Assembly: GCA_049976845.1 (NCBI GenBank)
Contig: JBMFHL010000006.1
Coordinates: 1 to 32,162 of the forward strand
DNA length: 32,162 nucleotides
Reading direction: 5' to 3'
DNA from: Candidatus Micrarchaeia archaeon
GTDB lineage: Archaea; Micrarchaeota; Micrarchaeia; Micrarchaeales; CABMGC01
Part shown: positions 3,542-23,606 of the stretch, in pieces
How positions within the stretch are numbered: the stretch's first letter is position 1
Layout: every line of letters begins with the position of its first letter
Made by a program: the position numbers and the translations under genes
Notes under the pieces: generated by a model
What the model was told of the DNA's origin: nothing
The model's input: only the letters and a program-made list of their open reading frames with translations
The model's database searches: none

Positions 3542-5080
3542 TCAGCCATTAATAATTTTCTCCTGCAAACAGTATGCACTCAATAAATCGCTTTCAGTAG
3601 AAGCATTGTATAGATCAAAATTTACAAAATCATATGCGCTGCTGTAAAGCCAGTTGTAGGAATTGCAATTAAGTTTAAGGTTTTCCACAGGTTCCGGTAT
3701 CACCATAAATTCTTCTATCATTGCAAGCGAATTATAGTTAGAGATATAAGGGACAAGTTCCTCTGTCACAAATAACGTTGTGTTTTTAGACTCTAACTTG
3801 TACACTTTTACGTTTAGCCCTGTGCTTGTCAGATAATTGCTCTCTCCAATTATACTAACATTTGTGAGTAGAGTCTTCTGCTCCTCAGGATTTGGCAATG
3901 TGATGAAAAGCACCACAGGATTTGTAGTGTTGAATGTATTGTTTACAAAAAATATTACGCTGCTTAAGTTTGAAATCGTAAACTCCTTAGTAAACCAACC
4001 TGTAGTATTTATGCTACTTGAAACAAAATTCTCAAAAGCGCTGCTGTTAGAATTCAAAGCCTTAATATTTTCAAAGTAAATGGGTGATATCATAAGAGAA
4101 TGTGGATAGTTGAATGATATAATATAATATAAAAGCGAGCAGGCAATAGCAAGCACCATAGCAATTAGCAAGTAGCCATTTTTGTTTTTATCCCTTAATC
4201 TAGCACTGCCTTTCTGCGCTTTTGCTTTATCTACTTGCAATTTCAAGCCAAATTTACCTGCTAGTAATATAATGACAATGAGCGAAATGTAAAATATAAA
4301 TATGCCTGCAAACGAGTGCGCAAAAGATGTGCTTGCATTTGGTCCGTATTCAAACCATGCAGTTGCTATTGCAAACATGCGCAGCACATTCAAGAGCAGA
4401 AGCAAAAGAAAGCCAGAAAAGACCCAATAAAATTTGTTAATATTTTTTCCATCGTAAAGGTAGGCTACGGGCACAAGGAACATTACTATTGCGATCAATG
4501 CGCCTATACCAGCACAGCTCTCGCCTATGCCAAGCACGTAGCCGTTCAGCTTTATTGTTCCTGGCAAAATGTAAGTGGCGCTGCTCGCGAAAAAGTGCAG
4601 TATGGAGTATACTATAATGGTATTCATCTCTGCAAAAGGGGCGTTTAACTCGAATATTGGGCTCATCAGAATTGGGGAAGCAAAAAGAGCGTATACAAGC
4701 AATGCCTTAAAGTAGTTTATGCTCTTGAAGCCAAAAAGTACTATGATTAGTCCTGCAATGCCCAGCGGTAGCACAAGAAGATCGAGCCTATAGCTCATGA
4801 AGACAAAAGAAAAAGCCGATCTTAAATATATAGTGCAGATTACAAACAATGCAAAAACAATCAATCCTATAGCAATGCTTTTTTTATCTGTTTTGACTTC
4901 TATTTTTTTCTTGAATGTAAACAACGCAAGCAACGGCATCATGATTAACGGGACAATTATGTAAGTGGAAGGGTCCGTGTCAAGTATATTTGGTTGCGTA
5001 GCAAGGAAGGAGTTTGCGAGCATTATAAGCAGTGCAACCAAAAAAACTGCAATCACGGCTCGCTTATGATTGAAATTCAT
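3542..5080 (-). CDS. Archaeosortase/exosortase-family transpeptidase with an extra C-terminal extracellular domain
   Basis: Cys-Arg-His triad motifs GIGESCAG, LNVLRM and FAHSFAG in a multi-TM core, then about 190 aa rich in Asn/Ser/Thr after the last TM. Confidence 0.85.
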   Translation of the reverse strand: MNFNHKRAVIAVFLVALLIMLANSFLATQPNILDTDPSTYIIVPLIMMPLLALFTFKKKIEVKTDKKSIAIGLIVFALFVICTIYLRSAFSFVFMSYRLDLLVLPLGIAGLIIVLFGFKSINYFKALLVYALFASPILMSPIFELNAPFAEMNTIIVYSILHFFASSATYILPGTIKLNGYVLGIGESCAGIGALIAIVMFLVPVAYLYDGKNINKFYWVFSGFLLLLLLNVLRMFAIATAWFEYGPNASTSFAHSFAGIFIFYISLIVIILLAGKFGLKLQVDKAKAQKGSARLRDKNKNGYLLIAMVLAIACSLLYYIISFNYPHSLMISPIYFENIKALNSNSSAFENFVSSSINTTGWFTKEFTISNLSSVIFFVNNTFNTTNPVVLFITLPNPEEQKTLLTNVSIIGESNYLTSTGLNVKVYKLESKNTTLFVTEELVPYISNYNSLAMIEEFMVIPEPVENLKLNCNSYNWLYSSAYDFVNFDLYNASTESDLLSAYCLQEKIING

Positions 5081-5870: not shown

Positions 5871-6998
5871 ATGATAGCATTTGAGGGCATACCGAGCGAA
5901 TTTGTGACAAAAACGCCAATATACGAGTATAAAGTGCCAATAACAGAAGCGCTTGATAAAATAAATCAGCTTACCGCTGTAGTGATAACGAAGAACAAGA
6001 GCTATTATGGGATAGTTGACGACAGGACGTTGACAAGGAAAGGCACGCTTAAGCTTACAAAAAAGTACTCAATAGGGAAATTTGCAAAAAAGGTTCCATT
6101 ACTCGACAATTCAACGTCGATAGAAAAGGCCATAGTATATTTCTATACGGAAGGCGTGAAGGCGCTGCCATACATGGAAGGAGATGTGATAAAAGGCGTA
6201 GTAAAAAGAAGTGAGATGCTTAAGGCAATACTCTCCTTCCACATGCTCTCTAATATAAAGGTTGAGAGTGCAATGACCTCACCAATAATAGCAATAGACA
6301 GCAATGCCAATATGGCACAGGCAAAGGATGCAATGCAGGAGAATAAAGTGAACAGGCTTGCAGTAATAAACAACGGAAAGCTGTTCGGAATAATAACCTA
6401 CAAGGACATGATGAAGGCATTCTCAACTTCTAGCGGAAGGGCGCCAAAGTATAAAAATTACTATTCATTGAGCGGCACCACTGTTGGGAGTGCATGCGAG
6501 AGAAACATACATACAATAGAGCAGAACATGCTTGTGGACAATGCAATAAGGGAGTTCCTTAACAAGAACATCTCCTCCCTTATAGTTACACGCAACCAGA
6601 AACCAGTCGGAATAATAACCGTAAAGGATGTATTTGAGCTCATTGCCTCTTCATCATTGGAGAGTGCAAACAAAGTTATAATATCAGGGCTTGACGATTA
6701 TACAAAGGAGTATGAAGAAGACATAAAGGCAGAGCTTAATGACCTGGCAAATAAAATAAACAGGTTCCGCAGGATAGGTGTAAATTACATAAGCCTAAAC
6801 ATAAAAAGGTCAAAGACGAGGAACTACGAGATGAGAGGTAAACTCGTACTCAAAAAGGGCGGAACGTTTGCAGCAGCATCACAGGGTTATTCTCTAGAGT
6901 CTGTATTGCGCGATATAACAAAAAAGCTCTATAAGTTTGCAGAGGGGAAAAAGGAGATAGTAATCAAGAATAAAAGAGAGAATGAGGTGCATGAATAA
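5871..6998 (+). CDS. Four-CBS-domain protein with C-terminal HPF/RaiA-like domain (putative ribosome hibernation factor)
   Basis: CBS motifs YGIVD, KGVVK, AMT-SP..LAV...LFGIITYKD, SSLIV...PVGIITVKD. The last ~105 aa follow the beta-alpha-beta-beta-beta-alpha pattern of HPF, ending GYSLESVLRDITKKL. Confidence 0.75.
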   Translation: MIAFEGIPSEFVTKTPIYEYKVPITEALDKINQLTAVVITKNKSYYGIVDDRTLTRKGTLKLTKKYSIGKFAKKVPLLDNSTSIEKAIVYFYTEGVKALPYMEGDVIKGVVKRSEMLKAILSFHMLSNIKVESAMTSPIIAIDSNANMAQAKDAMQENKVNRLAVINNGKLFGIITYKDMMKAFSTSSGRAPKYKNYYSLSGTTVGSACERNIHTIEQNMLVDNAIREFLNKNISSLIVTRNQKPVGIITVKDVFELIASSSLESANKVIISGLDDYTKEYEEDIKAELNDLANKINRFRRIGVNYISLNIKRSKTRNYEMRGKLVLKKGGTFAAASQGYSLESVLRDITKKLYKFAEGKKEIVIKNKRENEVHE

Positions 6999-7467
6999 CA
7001 TAAAGAAGGGATTTAGGGCGCAGTCAAGCTTCGAGCTACTTATAACCCTCTCCTTTGGCTTAGCAATTCTTTTGCCAATAGTCGTTCTTGCTTTTATGCA
7101 GATAGCAAGCTCAAGTGCTTCTCTGGCTTCGATAGAATCGCAGCAGGCGGCTTCAAAGATAGCAAGTGTGGCATCATTTGTTGGCAGCGAAGGGCCACCT
7201 GCAAGGCAAATAACGCAGATACAAGTTCCTCCAGGAGTTCAATACATCTATATCGGTTCGCAGAGCGGCGCTACAGGCCACTTAATAATTTTCGTAGTGA
7301 GATCACCATCAGGGCTTAGCTCAGTGACAGCATACACGCCAGTGAATGTGAGCGGCAATCTTGGTGGCATAAGTTCTACAGGAACATATCTAATAAATAT
7401 AACAGCAATGAGCGTCTGCCCCACATCTGCGCCGATGCCTTGCGTTTATATTACCCCATTTACATAG
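6991..7467 (+). CDS. Class III signal-peptide (type IV pilin-like) protein
   Basis: MNNIKKGFRA|QSSFELLITL, with E at +5 and a hydrophobic helix. SD GAGGTG at 6984-6989 favours the ATG at 6991. Confidence 0.85.
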   Translation: MNNIKKGFRAQSSFELLITLSFGLAILLPIVVLAFMQIASSSASLASIESQQAASKIASVASFVGSEGPPARQITQIQVPPGVQYIYIGSQSGATGHLIIFVVRSPSGLSSVTAYTPVNVSGNLGGISSTGTYLINITAMSVCPTSAPMPCVYITPFT

Positions 7468-7474
7468 TGTTTCG

Positions 7475-10400
7475 ATGAAGCTTCAGCTTTCACTTGAGTT
7501 CCTAATAGTCTTTTCATTTGTTTTGTTAGTATTCCTCTTCATGTTTGCCCTAATTTCGAACCAAAGGTCATTAGGATTAAGTGATCAGACATTCTCGCAA
7601 TTGCAGCTCCAGGCGCAGAGCATAGCAACAAGTATAGATTCTGCACAGCAGGCAGGCAACGGCTACATAGGCTCGGTTCCTGTGTCAAGCCTGATAGGCA
7701 TAATACCATACAATGTAACAGTCACTAAAAATGGCGTAGTAGTATTGCAAGCCCTGGTAGGTAAGCAGGTCGTAAAAGCAGTTGCATACAGTATGGCAAA
7801 GAATATTGTTTCAAATCCTCAGTATGCGTTGCCTGGCAATGCAAATTCCTATATGTTGCCGATATCTAATGGCTCGATATCGATTCAGAATTCATTTGGC
7901 AACATCTGCGTAGATTATCCATGCGCTTCGCAGGGCAACACTGCTGCTAGCATAAGCCTTTCTAGCCAAGATGTGCATGTGGCGCAGTTCAACGGGCAGA
8001 ACAGCTACATTCAAATTCCCAATGTGCAGCAGCTTCAACTACCAACTGTTACTTTTGGAGGCTGGGTAAACTATAGAGGGCCTACTTCAGGTAATTGGAA
8101 TTGGCTTATGGCAAAGCAATCTGCATACGGAGTAGGTGTTTGCGGTTCCTCTTTAAATGTGTGTTTCTATAATTGGGGTACTGCCACAAACTACCAGTCT
8201 ACATACTCTTTAAATAAAAATACTTGGTACTTTATGCTTGCCGAAGTCTACAACGGAAATGAAATAGCGTATATTAATGGAGATGAAGTTCTATCAGATC
8301 CGCTTAGCATTTCTAGCCAGTCGAGCGTAGGTTGGCAAATAGGATATGGAAATAGTGGTAGCCAATTCCTTAATGGCACAGCTGCAAATATCCAAATCTA
8401 TAACACCTCTCTTTCATCAAGCGAAATCCAAACTCTCTACCAAGAAGGTATAGGAGGTGCACCAATAGACTCGCAGAACCTCGTAGGCTGGTGGCCACTT
8501 AATGGCAATGCAAACGACTACAGCGGCAACGGCAACAACGGCGTTATAAAAGGTCCTTTGCTCTTTACAAGTGTCGCTGAGTTCTTTGCCAAGGTAAGAA
8601 GTGGCACAGGAAAAGTATTAGAAGGAGATTTGGTAAACTTTGCATCTACATATGGAAGCTTTTCAACGCAGCAGTCAAATTTCACAAACAGCAATGGTAC
8701 AGCAACTGCATTTCTAAATCAGCAAGCAACAAACGGCGAGGCGCTTGTTAAGGCAACAGCATTTAACGGCAATTCAACTATTGCGGCAAATATCATTGAC
8801 TGGTGGCCAATGAATCTTGGATCTGGAAACATTGCGTATTCTTCAAATCCTCTTGGAAACGGTTTTATAGAAAATGCATATTGGAATAAGCCAGATTATG
8901 TTTCAAAATTCAATGGGAATTCTTACATAAACCTTCCGCAGAACTCGCTCAATGCAAATTCAGTGCTTACTGCAGTAGCATGGTTCAAGACAACAAGCAC
9001 TGGCGTTGTGCTCTGGAACGGAAACGAGCCACAAATAAGCAGCGCTTCTTGCTACTCTCCAATAATATACATAAATCCGCAAGGCGATCTGGCTGGAGGA
9101 GACTCATCTTCTACAGGCACTCTTGCATTTAATACAAACTACTTTGTTGCAGATGGCAAATGGCATCAGGTTATAATAAATCAGACGGCAACGCAGCAAG
9201 TACTTTTTCTTGATGGAGTAGAAATAGCAACAGCATCATTGACTCCACAGACATGCACGCCCTTCAATTGGACAATAGGCGCAGGAACAACAAGCAGCGG
9301 CATTTCCTATTTCAACGGCTCTATTGCAAATGTGCAGATATACACAAGTTCGCTGAATGCTCCACAAGTTCATCAGCTCTTCAGCGAAGGCATTGCCGGA
9401 TTGCCTATAAGCAGCGCAGGCTTAGTGGCATGGTATCCATTAGATGGAAATGCAAATGATTATAGTGGTAGTGGCAACAACGGCGCAGTATATGGAAATA
9501 TAAATTTTGTCGGCACTCAAGCATCTGCAAACCAGCAAGGTGCCGGAAACTATTCAAGTTTCCTAGCAGGAAGTTTCAATCCGACAGGATCAACAACCAC
9601 AGGCGCCTATATAAATATACCTGGCATAGTCCCAATAAATTATAGCACTTTTTCTTATTTTGCATGGATAAAACCAACAGATGCTGAATCTTATAGCAAG
9701 GTATTAGCCACAAGCGGTGGAGATAGTGGTGCAATAGAAGTTTCTACTGGCGGCTCTACTCAGATAATGATAAACGGCTACAATACTGGTGGCTGGCTTA
9801 GCATAAATTCCTTATTCCCTCTAAATACTTGGAATCTTGTTGGGGCTACATATAATGGAAGTGCTTACACAGTATACCTAAACGGCAAGGAAGTTTGGTC
9901 AAAAACAGTGGGTAAACTGCTGGGATCTGCCGCTACCGGCAATCTGCAAATTGGGCTTACTACTGCATACGGTGTTTCAGGAAATCAGTTTTTTGGCAAC
10001 ATAGCAAATGTTCAGGTTTACCGCTCTGCACTGTCTCCTAATCAAGTGTCTCAAATCTACAGCAGTGGCATAACGGGCTTGCCTATCAGTGCTGCAGGTC
10101 TTGTCGGCTGGTACCCATTGGAAGGAAACGCCAACGACTATAGCGGCAACGGCAACAACGGCATTCCTACAAATGTAATATTCAATGCGCAGCAGGCATC
10201 AAAGCCATCTTTGATTAACTCTTTAAACGGCTATGGCGTAGATTTCAATGGGCAGAACAGCTACATATACAATGCCACAGCAGCGCCGCTGAATCTGCAG
10301 CCAAACTTCACAATAGCTGCGATGGTTTACTTGAATTCTTATGCAGGCTCTCCTGTAATTTACAGTGAAGGCATACCTGCAAACACCCTTTCATTTGGTG

Positions 10401-10801
10401 TAAGTGCCAATGGTAACCTCTATGCATCGGCGTGGAATGCAAAAACAACAAACAACTGGGTAGGTTTTACATCTAATCTCAAAGTGCCGCTCAATACGTG
10501 GACATTTGTGGCATTGCGCCTTCAGAATGGTGGCATAGGCACTGGTGCTGCAACGCTATACACGGATTCGCAGAACCAAACCTTTACGTTGCAGGAGGAG
10601 AACAACTCCGGCGCGCATTATCTGGGGATAGGATTCAATGTTGGCTACCTAGGCGGCCAGGGCTTCCAGGGCCTAAACGGCTCTATTGCAAATGTGCAGA
10701 TATTCAACAAAGCCCTTACGAATGAGCAGATAAACGAGCTGTACAGGAATGCATATCCTCCATATGCAACTTCCGAAGCCTCAATGGGTGTACTTCCATG
10801 A
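7475..10801 (+). CDS. Pilin-like adhesin: class III signal, 4 LamG modules and an Ig-like (Big_1-like) domain
   Basis: MKL|QLSLEFLIV, repeated FNG.NSYI ... ANVQIY ... LV.W[WY]PL.GNANDYSG, and an Ig-like stretch VNFASTYGSF...TNSNGTATA. Confidence 0.88.
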   Translation: MKLQLSLEFLIVFSFVLLVFLFMFALISNQRSLGLSDQTFSQLQLQAQSIATSIDSAQQAGNGYIGSVPVSSLIGIIPYNVTVTKNGVVVLQALVGKQVVKAVAYSMAKNIVSNPQYALPGNANSYMLPISNGSISIQNSFGNICVDYPCASQGNTAASISLSSQDVHVAQFNGQNSYIQIPNVQQLQLPTVTFGGWVNYRGPTSGNWNWLMAKQSAYGVGVCGSSLNVCFYNWGTATNYQSTYSLNKNTWYFMLAEVYNGNEIAYINGDEVLSDPLSISSQSSVGWQIGYGNSGSQFLNGTAANIQIYNTSLSSSEIQTLYQEGIGGAPIDSQNLVGWWPLNGNANDYSGNGNNGVIKGPLLFTSVAEFFAKVRSGTGKVLEGDLVNFASTYGSFSTQQSNFTNSNGTATAFLNQQATNGEALVKATAFNGNSTIAANIIDWWPMNLGSGNIAYSSNPLGNGFIENAYWNKPDYVSKFNGNSYINLPQNSLNANSVLTAVAWFKTTSTGVVLWNGNEPQISSASCYSPIIYINPQGDLAGGDSSSTGTLAFNTNYFVADGKWHQVIINQTATQQVLFLDGVEIATASLTPQTCTPFNWTIGAGTTSSGISYFNGSIANVQIYTSSLNAPQVHQLFSEGIAGLPISSAGLVAWYPLDGNANDYSGSGNNGAVYGNINFVGTQASANQQGAGNYSSFLAGSFNPTGSTTTGAYINIPGIVPINYSTFSYFAWIKPTDAESYSKVLATSGGDSGAIEVSTGGSTQIMINGYNTGGWLSINSLFPLNTWNLVGATYNGSAYTVYLNGKEVWSKTVGKLLGSAATGNLQIGLTTAYGVSGNQFFGNIANVQVYRSALSPNQVSQIYSSGITGLPISAAGLVGWYPLEGNANDYSGNGNNGIPTNVIFNAQQASKPSLINSLNGYGVDFNGQNSYIYNATAAPLNLQPNFTIAAMVYLNSYAGSPVIYSEGIPANTLSFGVSANGNLYASAWNAKTTNNWVGFTSNLKVPLNTWTFVALRLQNGGIGTGAATLYTDSQNQTFTLQEENNSGAHYLGIGFNVGYLGGQGFQGLNGSIANVQIFNKALTNEQINELYRNAYPPYATSEASMGVLP

Positions 10802-11325
10802 AACTGCAGTTTTGGTCTTTCGATGTAATCTTTGCGATGATCATATTCAGCTTCGCGGTAACAATATTAGCATTCGTGTGGTACAGCATAAACAACCAGT
10901 TCTCGCTGTCATATGGATATGGGGTAGCTTCGATGCAGATGCAGGTGCAGAGCCTTGCCGCAAGGCTTTTGACCCCTGGCACACCTGTTGGATGGAGCTC
11001 AATAATAGTTGCTAATAATACAAGCACATGGAACAACATAAGCATAGGTTTGTTGGGAAGCAATGGTGAGCTATCAATGCAGAAGCTAGCTGCATTGGAA
11101 TCGATGTCAAACTACAATTACGAAGCAACAAAGCAAGCAATGGGTATAGGATACGATTATTATATAATAGTCAATTCGCAAGGCATAAATATACCAATAG
11201 GCTCTAGCCCCTACGCAAATAATGCGCTTACAATACAAGTAATAAACGAGCCAATATCAATAAACGGAGCACCTGGCAACATGCAGGTTTTGGTCTGGAC
11301 CAACATGTCTTTTGGCGTGAGCTGA
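10798..11325 (+). CDS. Class III signal-peptide (minor pilin-like) protein
   Basis: MKL|QFWSFDVIFA plus TM helix and TPGTPVGW. ATGA overlap with the upstream gene. Confidence 0.8.
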   Translation: MKLQFWSFDVIFAMIIFSFAVTILAFVWYSINNQFSLSYGYGVASMQMQVQSLAARLLTPGTPVGWSSIIVANNTSTWNNISIGLLGSNGELSMQKLAALESMSNYNYEATKQAMGIGYDYYIIVNSQGINIPIGSSPYANNALTIQVINEPISINGAPGNMQVLVWTNMSFGVS

Positions 11326-13502
11326 TGAAAGGTATTGTATTTACATTGGATTCGATATTCGCATTGATTATAGCAATAGCGAGCATCTCAATAATGCTCT
11401 ACTTCTTCTATACGCCGCAGAGCTCGTATTCCTTCAGGTATTCAGAAGCTTCTTCGGTAATGAACAAGCTGCTGTCTACAAACATGAGCTCGCTAGCAGT
11501 TAGCAGCAAACTTGCAAGCCAGATCATATCTCAATCTGACGCATTCGCATCTGCGTGGCCCCAAGCACGGAAAAGCCCTGCCGGAAATGCCGGCTCTGGC
11601 TATGGCCCAGAATATTCTATGCTTTCATTTGTTTTTGCTGCGTCAAGCAATATACAAACCGGCATAGTTGCAGATTATGGAAACATATACTTCGCATCCG
11701 GGGCTAATGTTTATGCAGTTAATGCAACCACCGGCTCGCAAAGCTGGAGCAAGAATGCCGGATCTGCAGTTACGGAAACCCCTGCATTGTACAATAATAT
11801 GCTAATATACGCAAATGCAACCAATCTGGATGCAGTGAATGCGGCAAACGGCTCAATGGTATGGAGTGCCAATACAGTGGCATTAGCAGGTTACCAGATA
11901 ACTTCTACATCACCTATATTGCTATACAATGGGAAAGTAATTTTCGGGGCATCCGATTATTATGTTTACGCATTTTACGCCAATAATGGCACGCTTGCAT
12001 GGTCAAACTATACTGGCAGTAGCGTGACCTCTATGGCGGGATTATATAGCTCAATAGCTTTTAGAACGACATCCAACAATATCGGCGTAATAGTTCCAGC
12101 AAGCAATGCCGCAAAAACGCTCTTTATCAGGACAATGTCGGCTCAGATAAGCAATGTAGCAGCAATAAACAACACATTCTACTACGGCGCAGGAAGCTCT
12201 GCAAATGCAACTTACATAAGTGGGGCAAAGGGCTTTAGCACAAGTGCAGGTTCTATTGTGCAGGGTGTCGATGCATATAACAAAATCATAATCTATCAAG
12301 GTTTAAGTACAATGCTGGAGACGAATCCTTATGGTGCTGTGCTCTGGAGCTCGTCTTCTTCTTATGGTCCTGCTGTTACAGGCGCAATGCCTGTAATTGG
12401 AGGAGGCTTAGTATACACTGTCTGGTCAGGCAATCTGACTGCGCAGAATGTAACTACAGGAAATATCGCATGGTCATATTCATTGCCGCAGCCGTATACC
12501 TTCTCTTCTAATCTCACCATAGCATATGGAAAATTATTTGCAATAAGTGGGAATAAGGTATTGGCATTCGGCTCCTGCTATGTACCAAAGCAAGCGTCTC
12601 TTTCTAATGCGTCGGTGCTTAATACAGTTGCATCACTTTACATAAACAATGAAACGGGCTGCGCTGATGCATTGGCAAATGCGGTGTCTCCGATGTCCAA
12701 TTACAGCATCTCAGTTTCAGGCAAAGGATTGCCTGCGACAGGTTACATAAAGGGCGCAACATATTTAGGCAATAACAATTACATCTCTATAACAAACTAT
12801 CAATCTCTTGAGACAAATGCTTATTCATGGTCTTTCTGGATGTATCCTTATGCATGGAATACAAACAACGGCATAATAGGCCAGCAAAATCTGAGCGCCG
12901 GATATCCATATATCTATCAGTCCTCCAATCTATCTACAACGTATAGGCTGGTATTCAGCAACAACATGAGCAAATCTGGTTATACGTTGGGCGCAGCAGT
13001 AGGCCTAAATTCATGGTATCACGTAGTAGTGACCTCAAATTACGTAACAGGCATAACATCCTTATACATAAATGGCAAACTAATGCAGCAAAGCAAGAAA
13101 GAACTTCCTCCAATAGCAAGGCAGCATAGCCCATTTTACATAGGATATTTGCCAGGCAGTGCATTCTCATTCAACGGACTTATAGCCGACGTGCAGATTT
13201 ACAACGATACCCTTTCTCCTGCGCAAGCAGCCCAGCTTTACCTGCAGGGTATAGATAGCCCTCCATTGAGCAATGCAAACTTGCTGGCATGGTATCCATC
13301 GGGCTGCGCAAATGACCTCTATGCGCTGAATTACAGCGGATACATAGGCACTTCATGCACGCAGCTACTAAGAAATGGCCCGCTGCCTATTACTTTCTCT
13401 AATGCGCGCGAGATAAGCAGAGTCAGTATACCAATACCCTTGTTCAATTCAATGCTTAATAGAACATACCTATACAATGTAAGTGTTTATTCATGGGGAT
13501 GA
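11325..13502 (+). CDS. Pilin-like protein with PQQ-type beta-propeller and one LamG domain
   Basis: MKG|IVFTLDSIFA. Blade repeats VYAVNATTGSQSW, LDAVNAANGSMVW, VYAFYANNGTLAW, LTAQNVTTGNIAW. LamG WYHVVV...LYING...FNGLIADVQIY. Confidence 0.85.
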   Translation: MKGIVFTLDSIFALIIAIASISIMLYFFYTPQSSYSFRYSEASSVMNKLLSTNMSSLAVSSKLASQIISQSDAFASAWPQARKSPAGNAGSGYGPEYSMLSFVFAASSNIQTGIVADYGNIYFASGANVYAVNATTGSQSWSKNAGSAVTETPALYNNMLIYANATNLDAVNAANGSMVWSANTVALAGYQITSTSPILLYNGKVIFGASDYYVYAFYANNGTLAWSNYTGSSVTSMAGLYSSIAFRTTSNNIGVIVPASNAAKTLFIRTMSAQISNVAAINNTFYYGAGSSANATYISGAKGFSTSAGSIVQGVDAYNKIIIYQGLSTMLETNPYGAVLWSSSSSYGPAVTGAMPVIGGGLVYTVWSGNLTAQNVTTGNIAWSYSLPQPYTFSSNLTIAYGKLFAISGNKVLAFGSCYVPKQASLSNASVLNTVASLYINNETGCADALANAVSPMSNYSISVSGKGLPATGYIKGATYLGNNNYISITNYQSLETNAYSWSFWMYPYAWNTNNGIIGQQNLSAGYPYIYQSSNLSTTYRLVFSNNMSKSGYTLGAAVGLNSWYHVVVTSNYVTGITSLYINGKLMQQSKKELPPIARQHSPFYIGYLPGSAFSFNGLIADVQIYNDTLSPAQAAQLYLQGIDSPPLSNANLLAWYPSGCANDLYALNYSGYIGTSCTQLLRNGPLPITFSNAREISRVSIPIPLFNSMLNRTYLYNVSVYSWG

Positions 13503-16165
13503 AAAATAAAAAGAATAGGAAAGGATTCCTGATGACTATACTTGTAGTAGTAATATTTACGCTAATGTTGGCAGAGCTGTTGATATTCACAATGCTAAAC
13601 ACCAGCTACAACAACATAGAGCAGTCTGCGGCAGCAAGCTCGAGCTCAATAAATTACGCAGCAATGCTAAAGTCGAGCGCAGACGCTTTTGCTAGCGCCT
13701 CCCTCTCAAAGGCTCTGAGCACATTGGAAAGCTATGAGTATAACTCTAGCATGAGAAAGGGCAATTTTATATCAAACACGAGTCTATACCTCAGTACTCT
13801 GATAATAAACGGAACCCTGCCAAATGTACCAGCTAATTCGCTTGCGGCAAATACCCTTCTAGCGTTAATGGGAAATTCCACGCTTAAAGCATATAATGCA
13901 ACAGTATTATCTGATTTGAGGCCGTCGCCAGCTTACCTGAAGATAAGCGAGACAAAGCCAACAGTATTTCAAAGCAATCCATATACAATTTCAGTATCAT
14001 ATACAGAGAATATAAGCATTGGCTCTGCAACAGGGGTATACAACTACAGCATGCCTGTAGTTGCAACTATGCCTTTGAACGGCACAGCAGACCTTTTCTA
14101 TGCGCAGCAGGGCATATACAGGAAAATAAAGTTCTCATCAATAAACAATATGACAAGCATAATTGGCAACGCATATGCCACCTATGGCAACACGAGCGCA
14201 AATGCATTCATATACGGCATCGTATATCAAGTGCCCAGCGGAGTGACATGTACCAGTTTATCAAGCAACATCCCCTCGCAGTTTCAGGCAGCGCCTTTCA
14301 ATTCTTTGCTTATACTTGCGACTCCAAATGCAGCCCAGATAACAAATTCCACATGCACCGCAGCAAACAATTATGGCGGTTTGATAACATACTCAATAAA
14401 CAGCATAAGCAATCCTCCCACAGTGCCGTGGCTCGAATACTCAAGCTCTACAAATATACTGCAAGCCCTGCAAAACGGAGAGCATGTTCTGCTGTATGGG
14501 CCTGGCATGGACACCTTGAATATAGAAGCATTGAGAAATGCAATAGCCAATAATTCATATTTTGCATCCCCCTTCGCACCATCTTATCTAGATAGATCCG
14601 ATGCAAATTTTCTCAGACAATCACAAAATGGCATATTTACATTTTCAAACTTTAACAAAGATGCAGCTACTTTTTCGGGGACCAATTATATCTCTGTGCC
14701 TTCTATAAGTGGCATATCGGGCAGCACTGCCGCATCCATGTCTACTTGGATTAATACAAATTCTCTGGCTAATAATCAAATAGTTCTTTCTGATGACTGG
14801 TCGTCAAGTCAAGTATTGCAGCTCTACATCCATACAGACGGCCAAGTAGAAGCCGATTTTGGTTCTGGGAGCTGGATTGCAGCTGCAGAAACCACTGCAA
14901 ATGTTATTAGTATCAATAAATGGTACAGCATAGTTGCAACGTGGGGCAGTGGCAAAGGGATTAGCATTTATATAAATGGTACATCTGAACCCGTTACATA
15001 TATTGTAGGCTCGGCAACTTCAACAGGGGCATTGGGCTCACCTGCTACTGGAGACATTGCAAGCAACCAGGGAAATAGTGGTAATTTTGTTGGCCAGATA
15101 GTGAATCTGCAAATATATAATCAAGCCATTTCTCCTCAGGAAGCATATAATATTTATGAAGAGGGAGCAGGAGGAATTCCTATTAGCAACATGGGCCTTG
15201 TTGCTTGGTATCCACTAAATGGAAATGCAAATGATTATTCTGGTTTTGGGAACAATGGTGCAGCCACAGCTGTTTCATATCTGCCTCTGCAGAATTATAC
15301 TAGGGATAGCATCTTCCTTATTTCAACTCCACAAACTCATCCAATTCCAGGAATATTGTCGTGCATTAAGGGCCCAACATGTTCAAGCTCTTCTGCATTA
15401 TATCTGAGCGACTTGCCTTTGGAAATGGGTCAAGGATATATGCAAACTGCAGGTTTCAACGGGCAGAACAGCTACATTGAACAAACAAACGGTTTTTCAT
15501 TTATGAATAACGCCAATCAGCAAGCAACAATTTCCATATGGGCAAATCCTTCTTTACCAAATGGAGATATAGTAGATGAACTTGGTCAGAGTAGCATAAA
15601 CAACGGGTGGCATGATACATGGATAGACCTTGCAAATGGCAATATTTATATACGAGTGTGGGACTTGGGGTGTGTTAACCTTGGATCTATACCTCTCCAC
15701 TCTTGGTCTAATATCGCCATGATACTTTCTTATAATGGGGTTTCTCTTAATTACTCGGGATATATAAATGGGGTATACAAAAATTCTGGGAGTGGAAGTA
15801 GAAGTATTCCTGGCGGATCTTCTTCAATGTATTATCCACTTGGCTCTCCTGATGGTACAAACTGTGGTGATGGTGGAGCAGCATTCAACGGTCAAATGGC
15901 AGATTACCAATTCTATAATACCTCTCTATCCTCAAGCCAGATTAAGTCACTTTACCAAGAGGGCATAGGTGGCATGCCATACACTGCAAACCTTGTTGCA
16001 TGGTGGCCACTTAATGGCAATGCAAACGATTATTCTGGTTTTGGAAATAATGGCACGGCTTACAATGTTTTCTACCCATACTTCTCAGGAGCTTACCCTT
16101 ACAACGGGCTTTCTAATATCATGAATGCTGAAAACGAGAGGCAGCTTCTAAACCTTGTTGGATGA
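13499..16165 (+). CDS. Pilin-like protein with an uncharacterised N-terminal domain and 2 LamG modules
   Basis: MKNKKNRKG|FLMTILVVVI and two LamG repeats ending LVAW[YW]PLNGNANDYSGFGNNG. ATGA overlap at 13499-13502 (ORF track start 13493). Confidence 0.85.
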   Translation: MKNKKNRKGFLMTILVVVIFTLMLAELLIFTMLNTSYNNIEQSAAASSSSINYAAMLKSSADAFASASLSKALSTLESYEYNSSMRKGNFISNTSLYLSTLIINGTLPNVPANSLAANTLLALMGNSTLKAYNATVLSDLRPSPAYLKISETKPTVFQSNPYTISVSYTENISIGSATGVYNYSMPVVATMPLNGTADLFYAQQGIYRKIKFSSINNMTSIIGNAYATYGNTSANAFIYGIVYQVPSGVTCTSLSSNIPSQFQAAPFNSLLILATPNAAQITNSTCTAANNYGGLITYSINSISNPPTVPWLEYSSSTNILQALQNGEHVLLYGPGMDTLNIEALRNAIANNSYFASPFAPSYLDRSDANFLRQSQNGIFTFSNFNKDAATFSGTNYISVPSISGISGSTAASMSTWINTNSLANNQIVLSDDWSSSQVLQLYIHTDGQVEADFGSGSWIAAAETTANVISINKWYSIVATWGSGKGISIYINGTSEPVTYIVGSATSTGALGSPATGDIASNQGNSGNFVGQIVNLQIYNQAISPQEAYNIYEEGAGGIPISNMGLVAWYPLNGNANDYSGFGNNGAATAVSYLPLQNYTRDSIFLISTPQTHPIPGILSCIKGPTCSSSSALYLSDLPLEMGQGYMQTAGFNGQNSYIEQTNGFSFMNNANQQATISIWANPSLPNGDIVDELGQSSINNGWHDTWIDLANGNIYIRVWDLGCVNLGSIPLHSWSNIAMILSYNGVSLNYSGYINGVYKNSGSGSRSIPGGSSSMYYPLGSPDGTNCGDGGAAFNGQMADYQFYNTSLSSSQIKSLYQEGIGGMPYTANLVAWWPLNGNANDYSGFGNNGTAYNVFYPYFSGAYPYNGLSNIMNAENERQLLNLVG

Positions 16166-16169
16166 GTAA

Positions 16170-16208
16170 CAGCAAACAGTGCGGTGTGCAATGCTATGCT
16201 GTTTACTG
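16170..16208 (-). terminator. Stem-loop between the convergent adhesin and assembly operons
   Basis: On -: CAGTAAACAG...CTGTTTGCTG, 10 bp with one G-U pair. Confidence 0.4.
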
Positions 16209-16244
16209 ATTATAGCATGCAATAGCAAATAAAACATGCTAATA

Positions 16245-17234
16245 TCAGACGCCGCTTATGCTGTTGAACATTCCTGCTATTACTATGCCTACTATATAGA
16301 AAACTATTAATCCTACTACAAGGAATACTGGCAAGTATCTAAGGCCTTTGATTATTGAGCCAGTGGATATAGCAGAAACTATAAATGCGCCGAATCCAGT
16401 GATAAGAAAAACAGCAGACAATGCAAAGTCATGATACATGCCTATTGTTATCTTTGGTGGACTTGGCCTTAGGAATGACACGCCAGCTGTAGGCAAGCCT
16501 CCAGGATTCTGCTTTAGTATACCTGCCCACACAGTATCTGTTATTGTCATCATCTGCGTTGTCAATGCGTATAATGTTGGAGCTCCAACTATTGCTGCGA
16601 ATGCTATGAAAATTGTATACATGAACAATTGCCCAGAGATCTCCTTCTGTATCATCTGCTGATTCCTTATATCTTTTGCAACCTGATTAAGAAGGTCTGT
16701 CATGCCTCCTCCATACTGTATTGCCTCGACAAGCATTCTTACTGTGTGCTTCAGCTGCAATGATCTGTATCTGTCTGAAAGGAGAAGGAGTGCATTCTGC
16801 AGCGTCTCTCCCGCATACAGCTCCTTATTAACCAATTTGACATCATCGCTGAAATACTTGAATTCTGGCCTTGCGGCAAGCACCATCGCCTTGTCCAGAG
16901 ATATTCCACTCCTGACATTTGCTGCGGTAATCTGCAGGTAATTTGGCAATATTTCTTCTACAAAGTTCTTCCTTTTTTCAATGCTATACTCAAGGAGCAT
17001 GTAAAGTAAAAGCTCGAATATGACTGCACTTCCAATTCCTACCAAAATGGCAATGCCCACAAAATACTTAAATATGAAATATATTGAATATGAAGAGGCT
17101 ATGAGTATAAGCAAGCCGCCAACTATGGCTATGCCGAGGAATCTGTTTACTGTCATCTTTGATCCTGCAAGGTCAAGCTCCCTTGATATGAATACCACAA
17201 CGTTCCTTGCCACTAGTTTCTCGAATGATATCAT
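16245..17234 (-). CDS. Type II secretion F / TadC-like pilus platform membrane protein
   Basis: LPNYLQITAANVRSGISLDKAM, GETLQNAL, GGGMTDLL. Likely start ATG 17234. Confidence 0.9.
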   Translation of the reverse strand: MISFEKLVARNVVVFISRELDLAGSKMTVNRFLGIAIVGGLLILIASSYSIYFIFKYFVGIAILVGIGSAVIFELLLYMLLEYSIEKRKNFVEEILPNYLQITAANVRSGISLDKAMVLAARPEFKYFSDDVKLVNKELYAGETLQNALLLLSDRYRSLQLKHTVRMLVEAIQYGGGMTDLLNQVAKDIRNQQMIQKEISGQLFMYTIFIAFAAIVGAPTLYALTTQMMTITDTVWAGILKQNPGGLPTAGVSFLRPSPPKITIGMYHDFALSAVFLITGFGAFIVSAISTGSIIKGLRYLPVFLVVGLIVFYIVGIVIAGMFNSISGV

Positions 17235-17238
17235 GCCA

Positions 17239-18231
17239 TCACATTGCAAACACAGGCCTGGAGGACCTCATTATATTCAGGAATATCAGCTGCAGGAAGA
17301 ATATTCCCACAAGTGCGAAGATCAATGTAGATTGGTCTATGCTAAATAAGCTTATAAACGTAGTTAATATTGCTGCTACTGCTATTCCCATGCTTGGGAA
17401 TATAACTCCAAAAAGCATGTAAAACATAGCAAGTGCGTTGAGCCTTTGCCCATACCTCCTGAGCTCTATTATCCTCTCCTGCATCACGTCATCAACAACA
17501 CCCTGCAGTGCTCCTACTATATCTGCGCCAGCTTTTATACTCACAGACGCCTGCAGCATCAGATTCTTGAAAGTCTTGGATTCGCTCTTGCTGCTCACTT
17601 CATCGATCGCCTGCTCTATTGGCATGCCCAATTGAACCAATTCAACTACCTTTGCAAACTCCTTGCTCGCTGCTCCGTAGCCAGTGCTGACAGTTGTGAG
17701 TGCATTGAACAGAGGCATGCCTGAACGCATGCCGATAACCAAATCCCTTGTTGCAAATAATATGTCTCTTTCAATATCCTTGCCTATATTCTTGCTCTTG
17801 TCTATTGGGAATTGCACGAACTTGTTGAAGAAAACATAGTAGAACGCTATACCAAGTAACAATGCGAATATAATGCTTAAGCCATAATGAATCATCAGCG
17901 CCCCAACTGCAATCGTAAGTATAGCGCTGATTATTATAGAATTAATCATCATCTTTTTTATGAAATCATAGGTACTTTCCTTTATGCCCTGTTCCCTTAG
18001 TGCGATATCTAAGCCCTTGTGCTTTGCAGCTATGCTTGCCACATATATCTGAAATTTACTTACCTCCTTCTGCGGCACCTGCGGCTTCTGTCCTGTTTGC
18101 GTCGCTTCCTGAGCTTGCTGATAGATGGGCTTTGACTTTATCTTGAAGAAAAGGAACTTTTTCTGCTTTGTAAAGCCTATAGGCTGGAGCTGCTGTACAG
18201 AATCCTCTTTTATTTTCTTCTTTCCAAACAT
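17239..18231 (-). CDS. Type II secretion F / TadB-like pilus platform membrane protein
   Basis: IERDILFATRDLVIGMRSGMPLFNAL, YGAASKEF, GMPIEQA, GADI. Confidence 0.9.
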   Translation of the reverse strand: MFGKKKIKEDSVQQLQPIGFTKQKKFLFFKIKSKPIYQQAQEATQTGQKPQVPQKEVSKFQIYVASIAAKHKGLDIALREQGIKESTYDFIKKMMINSIIISAILTIAVGALMIHYGLSIIFALLLGIAFYYVFFNKFVQFPIDKSKNIGKDIERDILFATRDLVIGMRSGMPLFNALTTVSTGYGAASKEFAKVVELVQLGMPIEQAIDEVSSKSESKTFKNLMLQASVSIKAGADIVGALQGVVDDVMQERIIELRRYGQRLNALAMFYMLFGVIFPSMGIAVAAILTTFISLFSIDQSTLIFALVGIFFLQLIFLNIMRSSRPVFAM

Positions 18232-18248: not shown

Positions 18249-18839
18249 TTAGAATGAAACTTTTTTAAGCACCTCTGCAAGCTTCTGATTCCTAAGCGCT
18301 ATAAGCGACATCTGAAATTCGTCATTGCTCGGTACCTTTTCAAATTTGATCTTGTCAGAAAGCCCGTTGACCTCATATCTTATCATATTAATCTGGTCAT
18401 CTGTAAATACATGCTCATCTATTCCTTCGCTCATCTTCTCAAGATCTGATATCTGATCCTGCAGTGACAAGCTTGGAAGTATGAGCTTGCCTCCTTTTAT
18501 ATTCTTTACCTCTTTCTTCACAGTCTTCTCAAATTCTCTTCCCGCAGAGCCTACTATATCTTTGATCTCCTTTGTAGCTTCAAGTACCTCCTTTTCCACA
18601 CCTGGCTCCTTATTAAATTGTGGAACAGCCTGTTGCACCAGTGGGCGTTGAGCCTCTACCTTCAATTCTGCCTTGCCAAGCATGTCAGCTGCCTTCTCAT
18701 AGCCATATTCTTCTATATCGAGCCTATTTGAGATTGCGTCCTTTAGATTTATCTCTATGCCATGCGTGCTCTTCTGAATCCCTTCAATAATCTCTGCAGC
18801 TTTGGCATAGTCTAACTCTTCAACATTCTCCAAATTCAC
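18249..18839 (-). CDS. Hypothetical acidic helical protein within the pilus assembly operon
   Basis: 196-aa ORF overlapping the ATPase stop (GTGA), same strand. No family recognised. Confidence 0.75.
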   Translation of the reverse strand: MNLENVEELDYAKAAEIIEGIQKSTHGIEINLKDAISNRLDIEEYGYEKAADMLGKAELKVEAQRPLVQQAVPQFNKEPGVEKEVLEATKEIKDIVGSAGREFEKTVKKEVKNIKGGKLILPSLSLQDQISDLEKMSEGIDEHVFTDDQINMIRYEVNGLSDKIKFEKVPSNDEFQMSLIALRNQKLAEVLKKVSF

Positions 18840-20344
18840 ACCTTCTTGAACAAGTCATTCGAATAAGGTACATTGTCATTTATAATCTGCATCACCTTGC
18901 TGTTATCTTTATAATAGTTGGCTATAACGTAGCCTGTTGCGTCAACATCAAATACCTTGTTGTTTACCATCCACTCTATTACCTTTTTCTTCTCTTCCAA
19001 GTCTGAAAATATCTCTTCCCTGGAGTAGCCTCCATAAAGCATTATCATGTCAGCGAGTCTCGCCAGTTCGCCTATCTGCGTAAATGTGTCAATCCTGGAG
19101 TTCCATCTATAGAGAACGCTGGCATCTCCCACCCTTGTTATCTCTCCAAATTCCAAAACCCTCCTTATACCGAGCCTCCTATGCCTGAACAATGTTATAG
19201 TGCCTCCTATTGCATTTATCATTAGCTTCGGTATGTCAATAGGTGGATTTGTCATCCTTATTATAGTATCTTCTGCATCATCAGCGTGCACTGTGCCATA
19301 TACGGCATGCCCTGTATGTATTGCCTCGAACAGCGTTTCAGCATCGCTCTTTGTCCTTATTTCTCCAACCAGCATTATATCTGGCCTCTGCCTGAGTGCG
19401 TTAATCATCAAGTCATAAAGTTTTATCTCTCCTTTACCTTCTGGATTTGGCTGCCTTGTAATCATCGGTACCCAGTGCAAGAACTCTGGTAGCGTAAGCT
19501 CCCTAGTCTCTTCTACCGATATAACCCTGTGGTTAGGCGGCATGAATATACTCATAGCATTGAGAAAACTTGTCTTTCCGCTTGCAGTGCCTCCTGAAAT
19601 AAGCAGGCTTATCTCGTTCTGTATGCAGAGCCATGTGAGTGCAGCTAGGTAGCTAGATATTGTCTTATTTGCCACAAGCGCAGGCATTGTCCAAGGATTT
19701 TTTCCAAATTTTCTTATTGTTATGGTGTTGCCCCTCTGCGATATTGGATAAAGCGTTGCATTTACTCTCGAACCATCAGGAAGCTCAGCATCCATAAGCG
19801 GAGACAGGTTTGTTATCTGCCTGCCAACACGCCTCCCAATCTGTTCAGCGTCGTCATATATAGTATCTTCGCTAGGTATTACTAGATTTGATTTGCACCA
19901 GCCATATGTTTTGTGGAAAACCCATACTGGCTCCTTTGAATCATTGACAGCAACCTCTTCCAAATTGTCGTCTGCAAGAGGCGCTTCTAAGTCTCCAAGG
20001 CCAAGCATTATATTTATTATGTATGCTATTAGCGCCTGCTTTGACTCCTTTCCAGTGCCTGGCAAATATCTATCTATTATTACCTCAGAGGCTTCGATAT
20101 ACCTGTTTGTAAGTTCATTAAGATACTCTTTGTCCTCTATTCTTGTAGGGTCTATGGGCACAAGCGACAGAAGCTCTTGCCTAAGGGAAAGCAAGAGAAC
20201 CTTGGTTGCCTCTCCTATGCCTGGGAGTGTTATCTCGTATATTGGCACAAAGTCTCCCTTGTCCACTATCCTTATGTTGACTTTGAGCCCATGTGCATCA
20301 AGTCCATAAGAGGCATACTCCTTCTCCAAATTCTCCTCTACCAT
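18836..20344 (-). CDS. Type II/IV secretion (TadA/CpaF/ArlI-like) assembly ATPase
   Basis: LPDGSRVNA, TIRKF, Walker A GGTASGKTS, Asp box VEETREL, LRQRPD..LVGEIR, His box TGHAVYGTVHA. Confidence 0.96.
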   Translation of the reverse strand: MVEENLEKEYASYGLDAHGLKVNIRIVDKGDFVPIYEITLPGIGEATKVLLLSLRQELLSLVPIDPTRIEDKEYLNELTNRYIEASEVIIDRYLPGTGKESKQALIAYIINIMLGLGDLEAPLADDNLEEVAVNDSKEPVWVFHKTYGWCKSNLVIPSEDTIYDDAEQIGRRVGRQITNLSPLMDAELPDGSRVNATLYPISQRGNTITIRKFGKNPWTMPALVANKTISSYLAALTWLCIQNEISLLISGGTASGKTSFLNAMSIFMPPNHRVISVEETRELTLPEFLHWVPMITRQPNPEGKGEIKLYDLMINALRQRPDIMLVGEIRTKSDAETLFEAIHTGHAVYGTVHADDAEDTIIRMTNPPIDIPKLMINAIGGTITLFRHRRLGIRRVLEFGEITRVGDASVLYRWNSRIDTFTQIGELARLADMIMLYGGYSREEIFSDLEEKKKVIEWMVNNKVFDVDATGYVIANYYKDNSKVMQIINDNVPYSNDLFKKV

Positions 20345-23189: not shown

Positions 23190-23606
23190 TCAAAGCCCTT
23201 TAATAAGCTCGTTGAAAAGCTCGTCGCTCGCGGATCTGTTCGGCGTTGCAATGAACTTAGCCCCTGCATCTGCGAGCTTCGTCTCAAAAAGCTCGTCGTT
23301 TGCTCTAGTCGCTATAAGTACATTCTCGTTAAGGCTCTTTGCTGTTATTACAGTAAAGAGATTTTTTGCATCGTCATCCATTGCAACTGCTATTGCTCTT
23401 GCGTCTGCAATACCCGCTTCTTTTAGAGCTTTTGAAGAAGTTGCATCGCCCTCTACCGTGTCAATGCCCCTCTCCCTAAGCAGCTCCACCTTCTTTTGGT
23501 CTATCTCTATAACCACGACATAAAGCTTATGCTGCAAAAGTATCTCGACAATGCGCTCTCCTACAATGCCATAGCCGCAAACAATAACATGGTCCTTTCT
23601 CTCCAT
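23190..23606 (-). CDS. Stand-alone RCK/TrkA-N (KTN) domain protein
   Basis: HVIVCGYGIVG, VEGDAT, AGIADA, DDDAKN, TRAND. Start at 23606, alternatively 23651. Confidence 0.9.
   Translation of the reverse strand: MERKDHVIVCGYGIVGERIVEILLQHKLYVVVIEIDQKKVELLRERGIDTVEGDATSSKALKEAGIADARAIAVAMDDDAKNLFTVITAKSLNENVLIATRANDELFETKLADAGAKFIATPNRSASDELFNELIKGL

Follow-up and report, generated by a model that had tools for sequence, protein, structure and literature searches.

The stretch of DNA analysed here, called the window throughout, is 32,162 nucleotides (nt) long and makes up contig C6 of a Candidatus Micrarchaeia archaeon genome (G000; Micrarchaeota, DPANN; a 731-kb assembly in 52 contigs, 90% complete). 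It carries a run of five co-oriented pilin-like genes, three of which encode proteins with LamG modules. The original prediction held that these modules are exchangeable cassettes, with divergent cores swapped among adhesins by recombination at nucleotide-identical flanks. We find that the LamG cores in three of the seven modules are, as the best explanation and a probable one, renewed by recombinational replacement at the DNA that codes for the module frame.

The run begins on the forward strand with a small pilin-like gene of 161 amino acids (aa; 6982..7467; N-terminus KKGFRAQSSFELLITLSFGLAILL, read by eye). Gene A (7475..10801) follows and encodes an 1108-aa pilin-like protein with a hydrophobic N-terminus (MKLQLSLEFLIVF) and four LamG modules, A1 to A4 (Pfam Laminin_G_3, E = 5.2e-62, four stretches). 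After a second small pilin-like gene (175 aa; 10798..11325; N-terminus MKLQFWSFDVIFAMIIFSFAV, by eye) comes gene B (11325..13502), in which a pilin-like N-terminus is combined with a PQQ-type beta-propeller (PQQ_2, E = 6e-18) and one stable LamG module, B1 (Laminin_G_3, E = 4.4e-25). Gene C (13493..16165) encodes an 890-aa pilin-like protein with two LamG modules, C1 and C2 (Laminin_G_3, E = 1.3e-27, two stretches). The Laminin_G_3 (PF13385) scores of genes A, B and C were 208.9, 89 and 97.3 bits, against a cut-off of 27.6. By eye, all three genes and both small open reading frames (ORFs) encode a short polar or charged leader followed by about 20 hydrophobic residues. Pfam pilin models gave no match to the N-terminal parts of the five pilin-like genes, and neither small ORF (6982-7467, 10798-11325) matched any Pfam family. 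Genes A to C are adjoined, in convergent orientation, by two genes for TadC/PilC-type membrane proteins (T2SSF; 16245..18231, reverse strand; Pfam E = 1.6e-16 and 9e-16) and a type IV pilus/secretion ATPase gene (T2SSE; 18836..20344, reverse strand; E = 1.5e-31).

The LamG modules lie at 7979-8545 (A1), 8900-9487 (A2), 9554-10165 (A3) and 10235-10798 (A4) in gene A, at 12741-13352 (B1) in gene B, and at 14663-15262 (C1) and 15446-16057 (C2) in gene C, all on the forward strand. Each is built as a core of about 120-140 residues between two frame ends. The frame starts with a first strand, Y-(V/A)-A-Q-F-N-G-Q-N-S-Y-I, and ends with a last strand, a helix and a linker, F-N-G-x-I-A-N-V-Q-I-Y-N-x-S-L-S...L-Y-Q-E-G-I-G-G...W-W-P-L-N-G-N-A-N-D-Y-S-G-N-G-N-N-G. 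In slot A1 the 5' frame motif (FNGQNSYI) is a 24-mer at 7988..8011, with an exact copy at 15455..15478 in slot C2. The variable core of A1 (about 8012..8390), a low-identity island relative to congeneric genomes, is followed by a 3' frame at 8391..8545 (IQIYNTSLS...LYQEGIGG...WWPLNGNANDYSGNGNNG) that includes an exact 29-mer, 8489-8517. The variable core of C2 (about 15479..15880) is likewise a low-identity island, and its 3' frame (15881..16057) is a mosaic in which the 29-mer at 16001-16029 equals that of A1 and the 17-mer at 16028-16044 equals a piece of C1. The variable core of slot C1 (about 14693..15130) is unique among the five congeners compared. Measured by identity to the congeners, the three islands span about 8012-8390, 14700-15130 and 15480-15870.

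The AlphaFold model of module A1, for which 34 modules were aligned, comprises 13 strands and a single helix (pLDDT 81.9, pTM 0.83), and its top Foldseek matches are the LamG-like domain of PAPP-A, the carbohydrate-binding protein BACOVA_03559 and pentraxins (E = 1e-8 to 1e-6, TMq 0.68-0.72). The module is thus modelled as a two-sheet jelly-roll beta-sandwich with the fold of concanavalin A (ConA)-like lectins. The WWPLNGNANDYSGNGNNG stretch presumably resembles the N-terminal start of a Laminin_G_3 domain, judging by the Pfam profile. At 8480-8545 of the window it lies after the core, as it does even at the C-terminus of single-module small pilins (e.g. L042) and of gene C. In the A1 model the strand LVGWW, 3' of core and helix, belongs to the same sandwich; its packing into the preceding sandwich suggests a permuted strand order in these modules. 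From this fold and the gene context, the LamG modules would bind ligands and take part in host recognition.

We compared the window genome with four congeners (G001, G002, G003 and G004), of which G002 and G004 are sister genomes with assemblies 91% and 93% complete. Two more genomes of the genus, G005 and G006, were left out of the slot-by-slot comparison because their copies of the locus are fragments; all genomes compared are metagenome-assembled genomes (MAGs). Gene A has full-length orthologs in the four congeners (58-72% identity), and all five genomes have the same architecture of four, one and two LamG modules, the last module of G004 being cut by a contig end. Slots A2, A3, A4 and B1 are orthologous across the five genomes, with core identities of 60-96%, 74-98%, 42-83% and 52-92%, respectively. 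At slots A1, C1 and C2, core identity was 6-29%, except where one core type recurred. Unrelated cores therefore sit between conserved frames at these three slots, the outcome that the original prediction expected of orthologous loci in relatives, with four unrelated core types at A1, four at C1 and three at C2.

Four core types could be followed among slots and genomes. Type X occupies C2 of G000, G003 and G004 and C1 of G001 and G004; type Y occupies A1 of G003 and C2 of G002; type Z is found in A1 of G000 and G004, and type W in A1 of G002. Six further cores are singletons. Recurring cores were similar rather than identical, type Z in A1 being 80% identical between G000 and G004 and type X in C2 being 82-92% identical among G000, G003 and G004. 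In 30-aa windows, the A1 core of G000 had 69-93% identity to G004 and 12-40% to G002, G003 and G001; its C2 core had 72-93% to G004 and G003 and 6-36% to G002 and G001 at that slot; and its C1 core had 0-50% to all four congeners. Contig C1 of G004 breaks off (285162, L013) within the second of the two type-X cores in gene C; the tail of that gene is found at the end of contig C4 (L031). The presence of two X cores, 89% identical, within one gene probably caused that break in the assembly.

A tree of 35 cores agreed with the identity values. The cores of A2, A3, A4 and B1 each formed one clade (SH-aLRT support 99-100), and monophyly was rejected for the cores of A1 (P = 1.6e-5), C1 (P = 7e-6) and C2 (P = 1.3e-10; approximately unbiased test). 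Two clades with support of 100 crossed slots: the C2 core of G002 with the A1 core of G003, and the type X cores (three from C2, two from C1).

The positions of the joins were read from the sister genomes. The G002 and G004 loci are collinear without gaps in two blocks of 92-93% identity (1653 and 6262 nt) and one of 88% (252 nt); collinearity is interrupted only at the cores of A1, C1 and C2. At all three 5' joins identity ends within the codons for Y-(A/T)-A-Q-F-N-G-Q(-N), at the nucleotide string GCAGCGCAGTTCAA(C/T)GG. On the 3' side it returns at VQIYN in A1 and, in C1, at WWPLNGNAND, 56 nt short of the end of the module; C2, for which the comparison used the G004 contig with the gene C tail, has the same point of return as C1. 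The pieces replaced are of unequal size in the two genomes, 394 against 460 nt and 533 against 524 nt, and these length differences, together with the sharp edges, indicate replacement and not divergence in place. Across five mapped replacements the 5' join fell in (V/A)AQFNG every time (5/5), and the 3' join fell in VQIYN twice, in WWPLNGNAND twice and in LY-EGIGG once. The exact words shared at the joins are only about 17-25 nt long. Differential loss from a longer ancestral array was ruled out by the conserved protein lengths and linkers and by the homologous positions of the joins. Thus, over evolutionary time, cores have been replaced as units of about 400-530 nt with joins inside the frame-coding DNA.

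The frame of slots A1, C1 and C2 is shared by a dispersed family of small LamG pilins of about 300 aa in the congeners. As a putative pilin signal these proteins carry QSAMEYLMTYGWAILII. Their conserved N-terminal part (...KAQSAMEYLMTYGWAILII...GELPQYVAQFNGQ) is followed by an unrelated LamG core and then by a conserved tail (...IANVQIYNTSLSANEIQALY-EGIGGAPIDLQHLVAWWPLNGNANDYSGNGNNG...SNWYSGYTPP). Module A1 of G002 has a match along its whole length in a frameshifted small pilin of G004 (85% over 631 nt; 96% at the amino acid level in the C-terminal half). That copy (L026, G004:C1:10000-11200), which has a frameshift and an internal deletion and whose core is the slot A1 core of G002, may be a gene in decay, what is left of a donor, or the product of an error in sequencing. 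The 3' frame DNA of slot A1 in G000 was closest, in the comparison set, to small-pilin 3' ends of G004 (84-86% over 152-172 nt). In two syntenic pairs of small-pilin loci, G002c14/G004c1c and G002c42/G004c1e, the surroundings match and the cores are unrelated; the first pair is homologous right up to ELPQYVA and again from VQIYN on.

The G000 assembly holds eight LamG modules, seven of them in this locus, and one pilin cut by a contig end. That small LamG pilin (C21:11267-11733) runs off its contig inside the core, and another contig (C48, 752 nt) begins and ends with the same pilin N-terminus. As pilin repeats break the assembly, the real number of pilins is probably above the assembled one. 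Of 20 other LamG stretches examined from the five genomes, 11 have a pilin N-terminus of their own and form ORFs of 304-427 aa, and one more is frameshifted; the remainder are contig-end fragments or belong to a separate, C3-type family. This family is a stable, membrane-anchored, single-LamG protein of about 250-260 aa (G000:C3:25848-26429, reverse strand; G004:C3:39202-39762; G002:C5:34905-35495) that is conserved between congeners, lacks the WWPL tail and takes no part in the exchange.

Cores have also moved beyond the genus. We surveyed small pilins in the species genomes of GTDB, obtaining at least 597 confirmed stretches among at least 623 candidates. Among the matches listed, 78 small-pilin loci were kept, all but a few from Micrarchaeota; 13 were dropped for lacking an ORF of at least 220 aa with both motifs and three (L066, L095 and L096) because they could not be partitioned, leaving 62 for analysis. 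Two loci from different Micrarchaeota species records, L054 and L107, are 100% identical over 495 nt that begin in the codons for VAQFNG and end in those for LY. Their flanks are 76% (N-terminal) and 88% (C-terminal) identical and the DNA around the genes does not align, so the core alone must have been transferred.

The three cores of the window were searched for in 151 genomes of the order. Type Z was found in 18 of the 151, in gene-A-like ORFs of 1063-1112 aa, gene-C-like ORFs of 877-889 aa and ORFs of 248-290 aa; in one genome (G007) types Z and X share an 877-aa ORF. Type X was found in 34 of the 151, in contexts that include ORFs of small-pilin size (301-313 aa); this tally includes one unpublished genome, G038, on which nothing rests. 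Relatives of type X with 61-62% identity lie in two genomes of another family, in frames of 5127 aa (G083:C1:258721-259098) and 2066 aa (G108:C3:39662-40036), so LamG cores of this pool also occur in giant surface proteins. The C1 core of the window was found in none of 75 genomes of its own family and in six of 74 genomes of another family, at 45-64% identity. Cores have thus changed places within single genes and from gene to gene, have passed between large adhesins and small pilins, and have crossed from species to species.

The exact nucleotide blocks that gave rise to the original prediction are nearly all present as described. The first module of gene A and the last of gene C share 24 of 24 bp (7988-8011 = 15455-15478) and 29 of 29 bp (8489-8517 = 16001-16029), and in the 731-kb assembly each of these words occurs only at its two places. 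Further blocks join 9314-9341 to 10676-10703 (28/28), 8513-8542 to 10133-10162 (29/30) and 15233-15249 to 16028-16044 (17/17), and the cores of A1 and C2 are only 17% identical as protein. A third copy of the 24-mer, placed at 10243-10266 with one mismatch, in fact lies at 10244-10267 in A4 and has two mismatches in 24 (one in the first 23). Elsewhere in the genus, copies of the 24-mer with at most two mismatches occur in slot C1 of G002 (one mismatch) and in G005 (two), and the 29-mer recurs without mismatch in a small pilin of G004 (C1:65423-65451).

The identity of these blocks was said to exceed what protein conservation predicts, and codon resampling bore this out. We aligned the seven module proteins, kept them fixed and redrew synonymous codons 2000 times under each of two codon-usage tables, one for the whole genome and one for the three genes. 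Among the seven modules there were eight in-register exact runs of at least 17 nt (0.55-0.70 expected), three of at least 24 nt (0.019-0.028 expected) and two of at least 28 nt (0.003-0.006 expected). The A1/C2 pair has two runs of at least 24 nt, which no simulation produced within one pair. The blocks are therefore unexplained by protein conservation and codon bias together, and chance or codon bias as their source is ruled out. Between A1 and C2, codons for identical residues matched at 8 of 10 positions in the 5' flank (4.5 expected), 21 of 41 in the 3' flank (15.5 expected) and 4 of 17 in the core (6.0 expected), the last being at chance level. The excess of codon identity is confined to short tracts, and matching over whole flanks is only modestly raised. 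In the codon alignment the 3' end of C2 is a patchwork, 29 nt the same as A1 and then 17 nt the same as C1.

The small-pilin family showed the same pattern. C-flank analyses excluded copies truncated at contig ends, leaving 47 within-genome pairs, against 54 for the N flank. Runs of at least 20 nt were present in 52% of the 54 N-flank pairs (9% in codon shuffles) and 26% of the 47 C-flank pairs (2.6% in shuffles), compared with 12% (N) and 6% (C) of between-genome pairs. Between genomes, codon sharing was 0.39-0.40 (0.34-0.35 expected) and rose locally at ELPQ, which adjoins the 5' join. The 57 small pilins with the 3' motif typically differ from the 29-mer at 5-6 positions, the G004 copy of the same genus alone having no mismatch, and the 20 sequences with the 5' motif differ from the 24-mer at 4-10; these distances rule out a family-wide, position-specific codon preference behind the two words. 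In the genomes examined, the pattern of the window is thus that of the family: short, recent exchange tracts on an old, protein-constrained frame.

How would cores be exchanged? The probable mechanism is ordinary homologous recombination of the RecA/RadA type, or gene conversion. It would start in stretches of nucleotide identity kept available by the strong protein conservation of the frame, and its partners would be resident paralogs as well as DNA acquired from related cells. The outcome would be turnover of the surfaces by which the pilus tip or shaft binds glycans or proteins of the host cell. The process appears to run without a reverse transcriptase, a site-specific recombinase or a store of silent copies. 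The proposed independence from reverse transcription held: the 90%-complete G000 assembly gave no match to PF00078 (RVT_1), a search whose control was positive in 3 of 14 known genomes. A direct-repeat search of 6500-18000 for a template/variable repeat pair returned only short frame blocks, and the variable cores are mutually unrelated (15-25% amino acid identity) and not A-substituted copies of one another. Pfam scans of the window showed no recombinase or guide element. No silent-cassette archive was found in G000, where 90% completeness leaves absence unproven.

A more far-reaching version of this reading is possible, and we put it forward tentatively. The LamG frame (AQFNGQNSYI ... VQIYN-SLS...LYQEGIGG...WWPLNGNANDYSGNGNNG) may be a docking frame selected across the lineage, and the cores a common pool of host-recognition domains drawn on across species and families by DNA uptake and homologous recombination. 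Cores would be slotted into small pilins or into A1, C1 and C2 of giant tip adhesins, so that host range would be reset by cassette import rather than by mutation, possibly visibly within single populations.

Several observations weigh against core replacement by recombination, or limit it. All of the evidence rests on MAGs. Among the Logan contigs of the one sequencing run found (depth about 3, 9% of words) there was no junction-spanning sequence: 70 pieces were placed on the window, 12 of them at 99% identity or more, and none bridged a join. One 'skip' joint in these contigs, from 8532 to 9311, has 29 letters on its shorter side, in a repeated motif, and was given no weight. Sixteen contigs stacked at 8236-8569 with loose ends continuing into a small-pilin tail, which shows only that the linker sequence is common in that sample. 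The slot groups for the tree tests were chosen after the identity matrix had been seen, and several singleton cores sit on long branches. Between the seven cores of G002 and the nine of G004 only type W is shared, which fits import from outside but also the incompleteness of the two assemblies. Exchange is evident between species on an evolutionary time scale and not as switching within a population. The remark that the swapped cores use more T-ending codons was numerically right, as the frequency of T at third codon positions (T3) was 0.40, 0.45 and 0.38 in the cores of A1, C2 and C1, whereas 125-codon windows of the genome average 0.255 (5-95% range 0.17-0.36). The signal is not specific to swapped cores, however: the stable A3 core (9617-9985) also has a T3 of 0.40, so odd codon usage is no clean marker of imported cassettes.

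The flanks themselves also speak against frequent exchange. In the small pilins the N flank is strongly conserved as protein (within-genome proportion of nonsynonymous differences 0.064), yet the proportion of synonymous differences (pS) is 0.68 (N) and 0.74 (C) within genomes and 0.78 and 0.80 between them. General concerted evolution of the flanks is thus unsupported; they are not homogenised, and those of paralogs are near synonymous saturation overall, which implies that recombination is rare relative to synonymous change or that its tracts are short. Exact tracts moreover join stable slots, the 28-mer linking A2 and A4 and the 29/30 match linking A1 and A3. A4 has a near-copy of the 5' 24-mer but is stable in all five genomes, so owning such a tract is not sufficient for swapping. 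In keeping with the tracts between stable slots and with the constancy of A4, the exact 24-, 29-, 28- and 17-nt blocks are probably footprints of recent short exchange tracts and not words kept identical as handles; such tracts may also serve as substrates for the next exchange. The proposal that cores are swapped by recombination at conserved flanks is supported within limits: cores are exchanged with joins in the frame motifs, and the 24- and 29-mers are probably not selected handles.

Alternatively, the 24-29-nt blocks would have arisen by short-patch conversion at the most conserved motifs of paralogs and played no causal part in core replacement, and no core would have moved in the recent history of this genome. 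This is unlikely, although it accommodates the tracts between stable slots (9314-9341 = 10676-10703; 8513-8542 ~ 10133-10162), the orthology of A4 in all five genomes despite its near-copy of the 24-mer, the A1-like and C1-like pieces at the 3' end of C2 and the synonymous saturation of the flanks elsewhere. Against it, the five mapped replacements all join in the same motifs, A1 and C2, which share both exact blocks, are two of the three swapping slots, and a different species has the 29-mer unchanged in one of its small pilins; it also departs from recombinational replacement on cause and timing only, not on swapping. Far less probable is that short-read assemblers, or binning, joined different pilin genes through their conserved flanks. 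In its favour, only MAGs were compared, several of them with low coverage, the assemblies are indeed broken at repeats (G004 contig C1 ends inside the C2 core; the small pilin on G000 C21 is cut) and the run contigs bridge no join. Five independent assemblies nevertheless give intact ORFs with the same architecture, and core types recur in the same slot at species-level divergence (Z 80%, X 82-92%) and not as identical sequence. The exact words shared at joins, at about 17-25 nt, are also shorter than the final k-mers of the usual assemblers.

We give as little credence to programmed antigenic variation of the gonococcal pilE/pilS kind, in which expressed slots would be rewritten at high frequency from silent cassettes. 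Conserved ends around a variable middle would fit it, as would the frameshifted G004 small pilin carrying the slot A1 core of its sister species, and in a 90%-complete G000 assembly pilin repeats are under-assembled. Against it, G000 has only eight LamG modules plus the one pilin cut at a contig end, 11 of the 20 other LamG stretches are ORFs with their own pilin N-terminus, synonymous divergence of the flanks is high, unlike that of frequently converting loci, and the window showed neither a recombinase nor a guide element. Hardly credible, finally, is hyper-divergence in place, whether by point mutation under diversifying selection on the cores with purifying selection on the frames, or by retroelement mutagenesis. 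The general Laminin_G_3 profile does have conserved first and last strands and a variable middle, as this would require. It is already contradicted by the sister genomes, where 92-93% identity stops at sharp edges, with no alignment and unequal lengths past them, by the recurrence of the same cores in other slots and genes, by the 100% identical core between the diverged flanks of L054 and L107, and by the failure to find a reverse transcriptase in G000.

Two other features of the window lie away from the pilin-like genes. About 2 kb upstream of the pilin operon, on the reverse strand, is a gene for an archaeosortase-like membrane protein of 512 aa (3542-5080; Exosortase_EpsH, E = 4.4e-18). 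At 21673-23651, also on the reverse strand, three consecutive ORFs match TrkA_N (E = 9e-22 to 2e-30), two of which overlap in the ORF list.

Recombination is known to renew surface proteins elsewhere. In the pilE/pilS system of Neisseria, conserved segments flank variable ones that are renewed by non-reciprocal homologous recombination. The LamG genes resemble this in being pilin genes with conserved segments around a variable part renewed by recombination. They differ in showing no sign of a promoterless silent archive, of a guide element or of high frequency, in the synonymous divergence of their flanks, and in that a whole-domain core is exchanged between species and not within a clone. In Helicobacter pylori the expressed adhesin paralogs babA, babB and babC swap middle segments by homologous recombination at conserved ends. 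Here, unlike in the bab genes, the fold, the domain of life and the filament context are other, and cores also move between species and between multi- and single-module proteins. Diversity-generating retroelements (DGRs) of DPANN archaea and of bacteria of the candidate phyla radiation diversify ligand-binding surface proteins in host-dependent lineages with small genomes. They depend on a reverse transcriptase with a template repeat, and what they alter are adenine-templated positions within a short stretch. In G000, by contrast, RVT_1 was not found and whole unrelated cores are substituted.

Modular pilins with lectin-like domains have been described in bacteria. The passages drawn on from Raynaud et al. 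(2021, PMC8179133), which deal with bacteria alone, present PilC of Streptococcus sanguinis as a pilin module joined to a ConA-like lectin module, and PilB as a likewise modular type IV pilin. The proteins of the window share with these the fusion of a pilin-like N-terminus (by eye, with a putative class III signal) to a ConA-like adhesive module, a type IV pilus locus with its assembly ATPase and platform genes (T2SSE and two T2SSF), and a proposed role as tip or surface adhesins. They differ in their archaeal host and in having up to four LamG modules per protein, and core replacement between conserved frames is not described in those passages. Within the phylum, 'Ca. Mancarchaeum acidiphilum' Mia14 is reported, in the sections we drew on of Golyshina et al. 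(2017, PMC5498576), to have an expanded set of LamG-like proteins with links to type IV pili loci, some of the genes lying in a genomic island. Phylum, domain family, type IV pilus linkage and proposed host-contact role are the same; slot-wise core replacement, conserved frames and core-only transfer are not described in those sections. Makarova et al. (2016, PMC4858521) make no mention of LamG, laminin, concanavalin, DPANN or Micrarchaeota. A full-text literature search, with hits taken at the level of abstracts, found no paper on core exchange between conserved LamG frames in DPANN archaea.

The named candidates for host contact in DPANN archaea have so far been pili and LamG-like proteins, and those for diversification have been retroelements. 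At this locus A1, C1 and C2, with the small-pilin family, turn over faster than a backbone whose DNA divergence is 7-8%, while neighbouring modules stay fixed. This marks the cores of A1, C1, C2 and the small pilins as likely determinants of host recognition, and the stable modules as scaffold. For genome-resolved metagenomics it means that such genes break assemblies and may mis-join them. The locus shows a route to surface diversification in archaea that needs no retroelement, and it leads to the prediction that strain-level host specificity should track core content.

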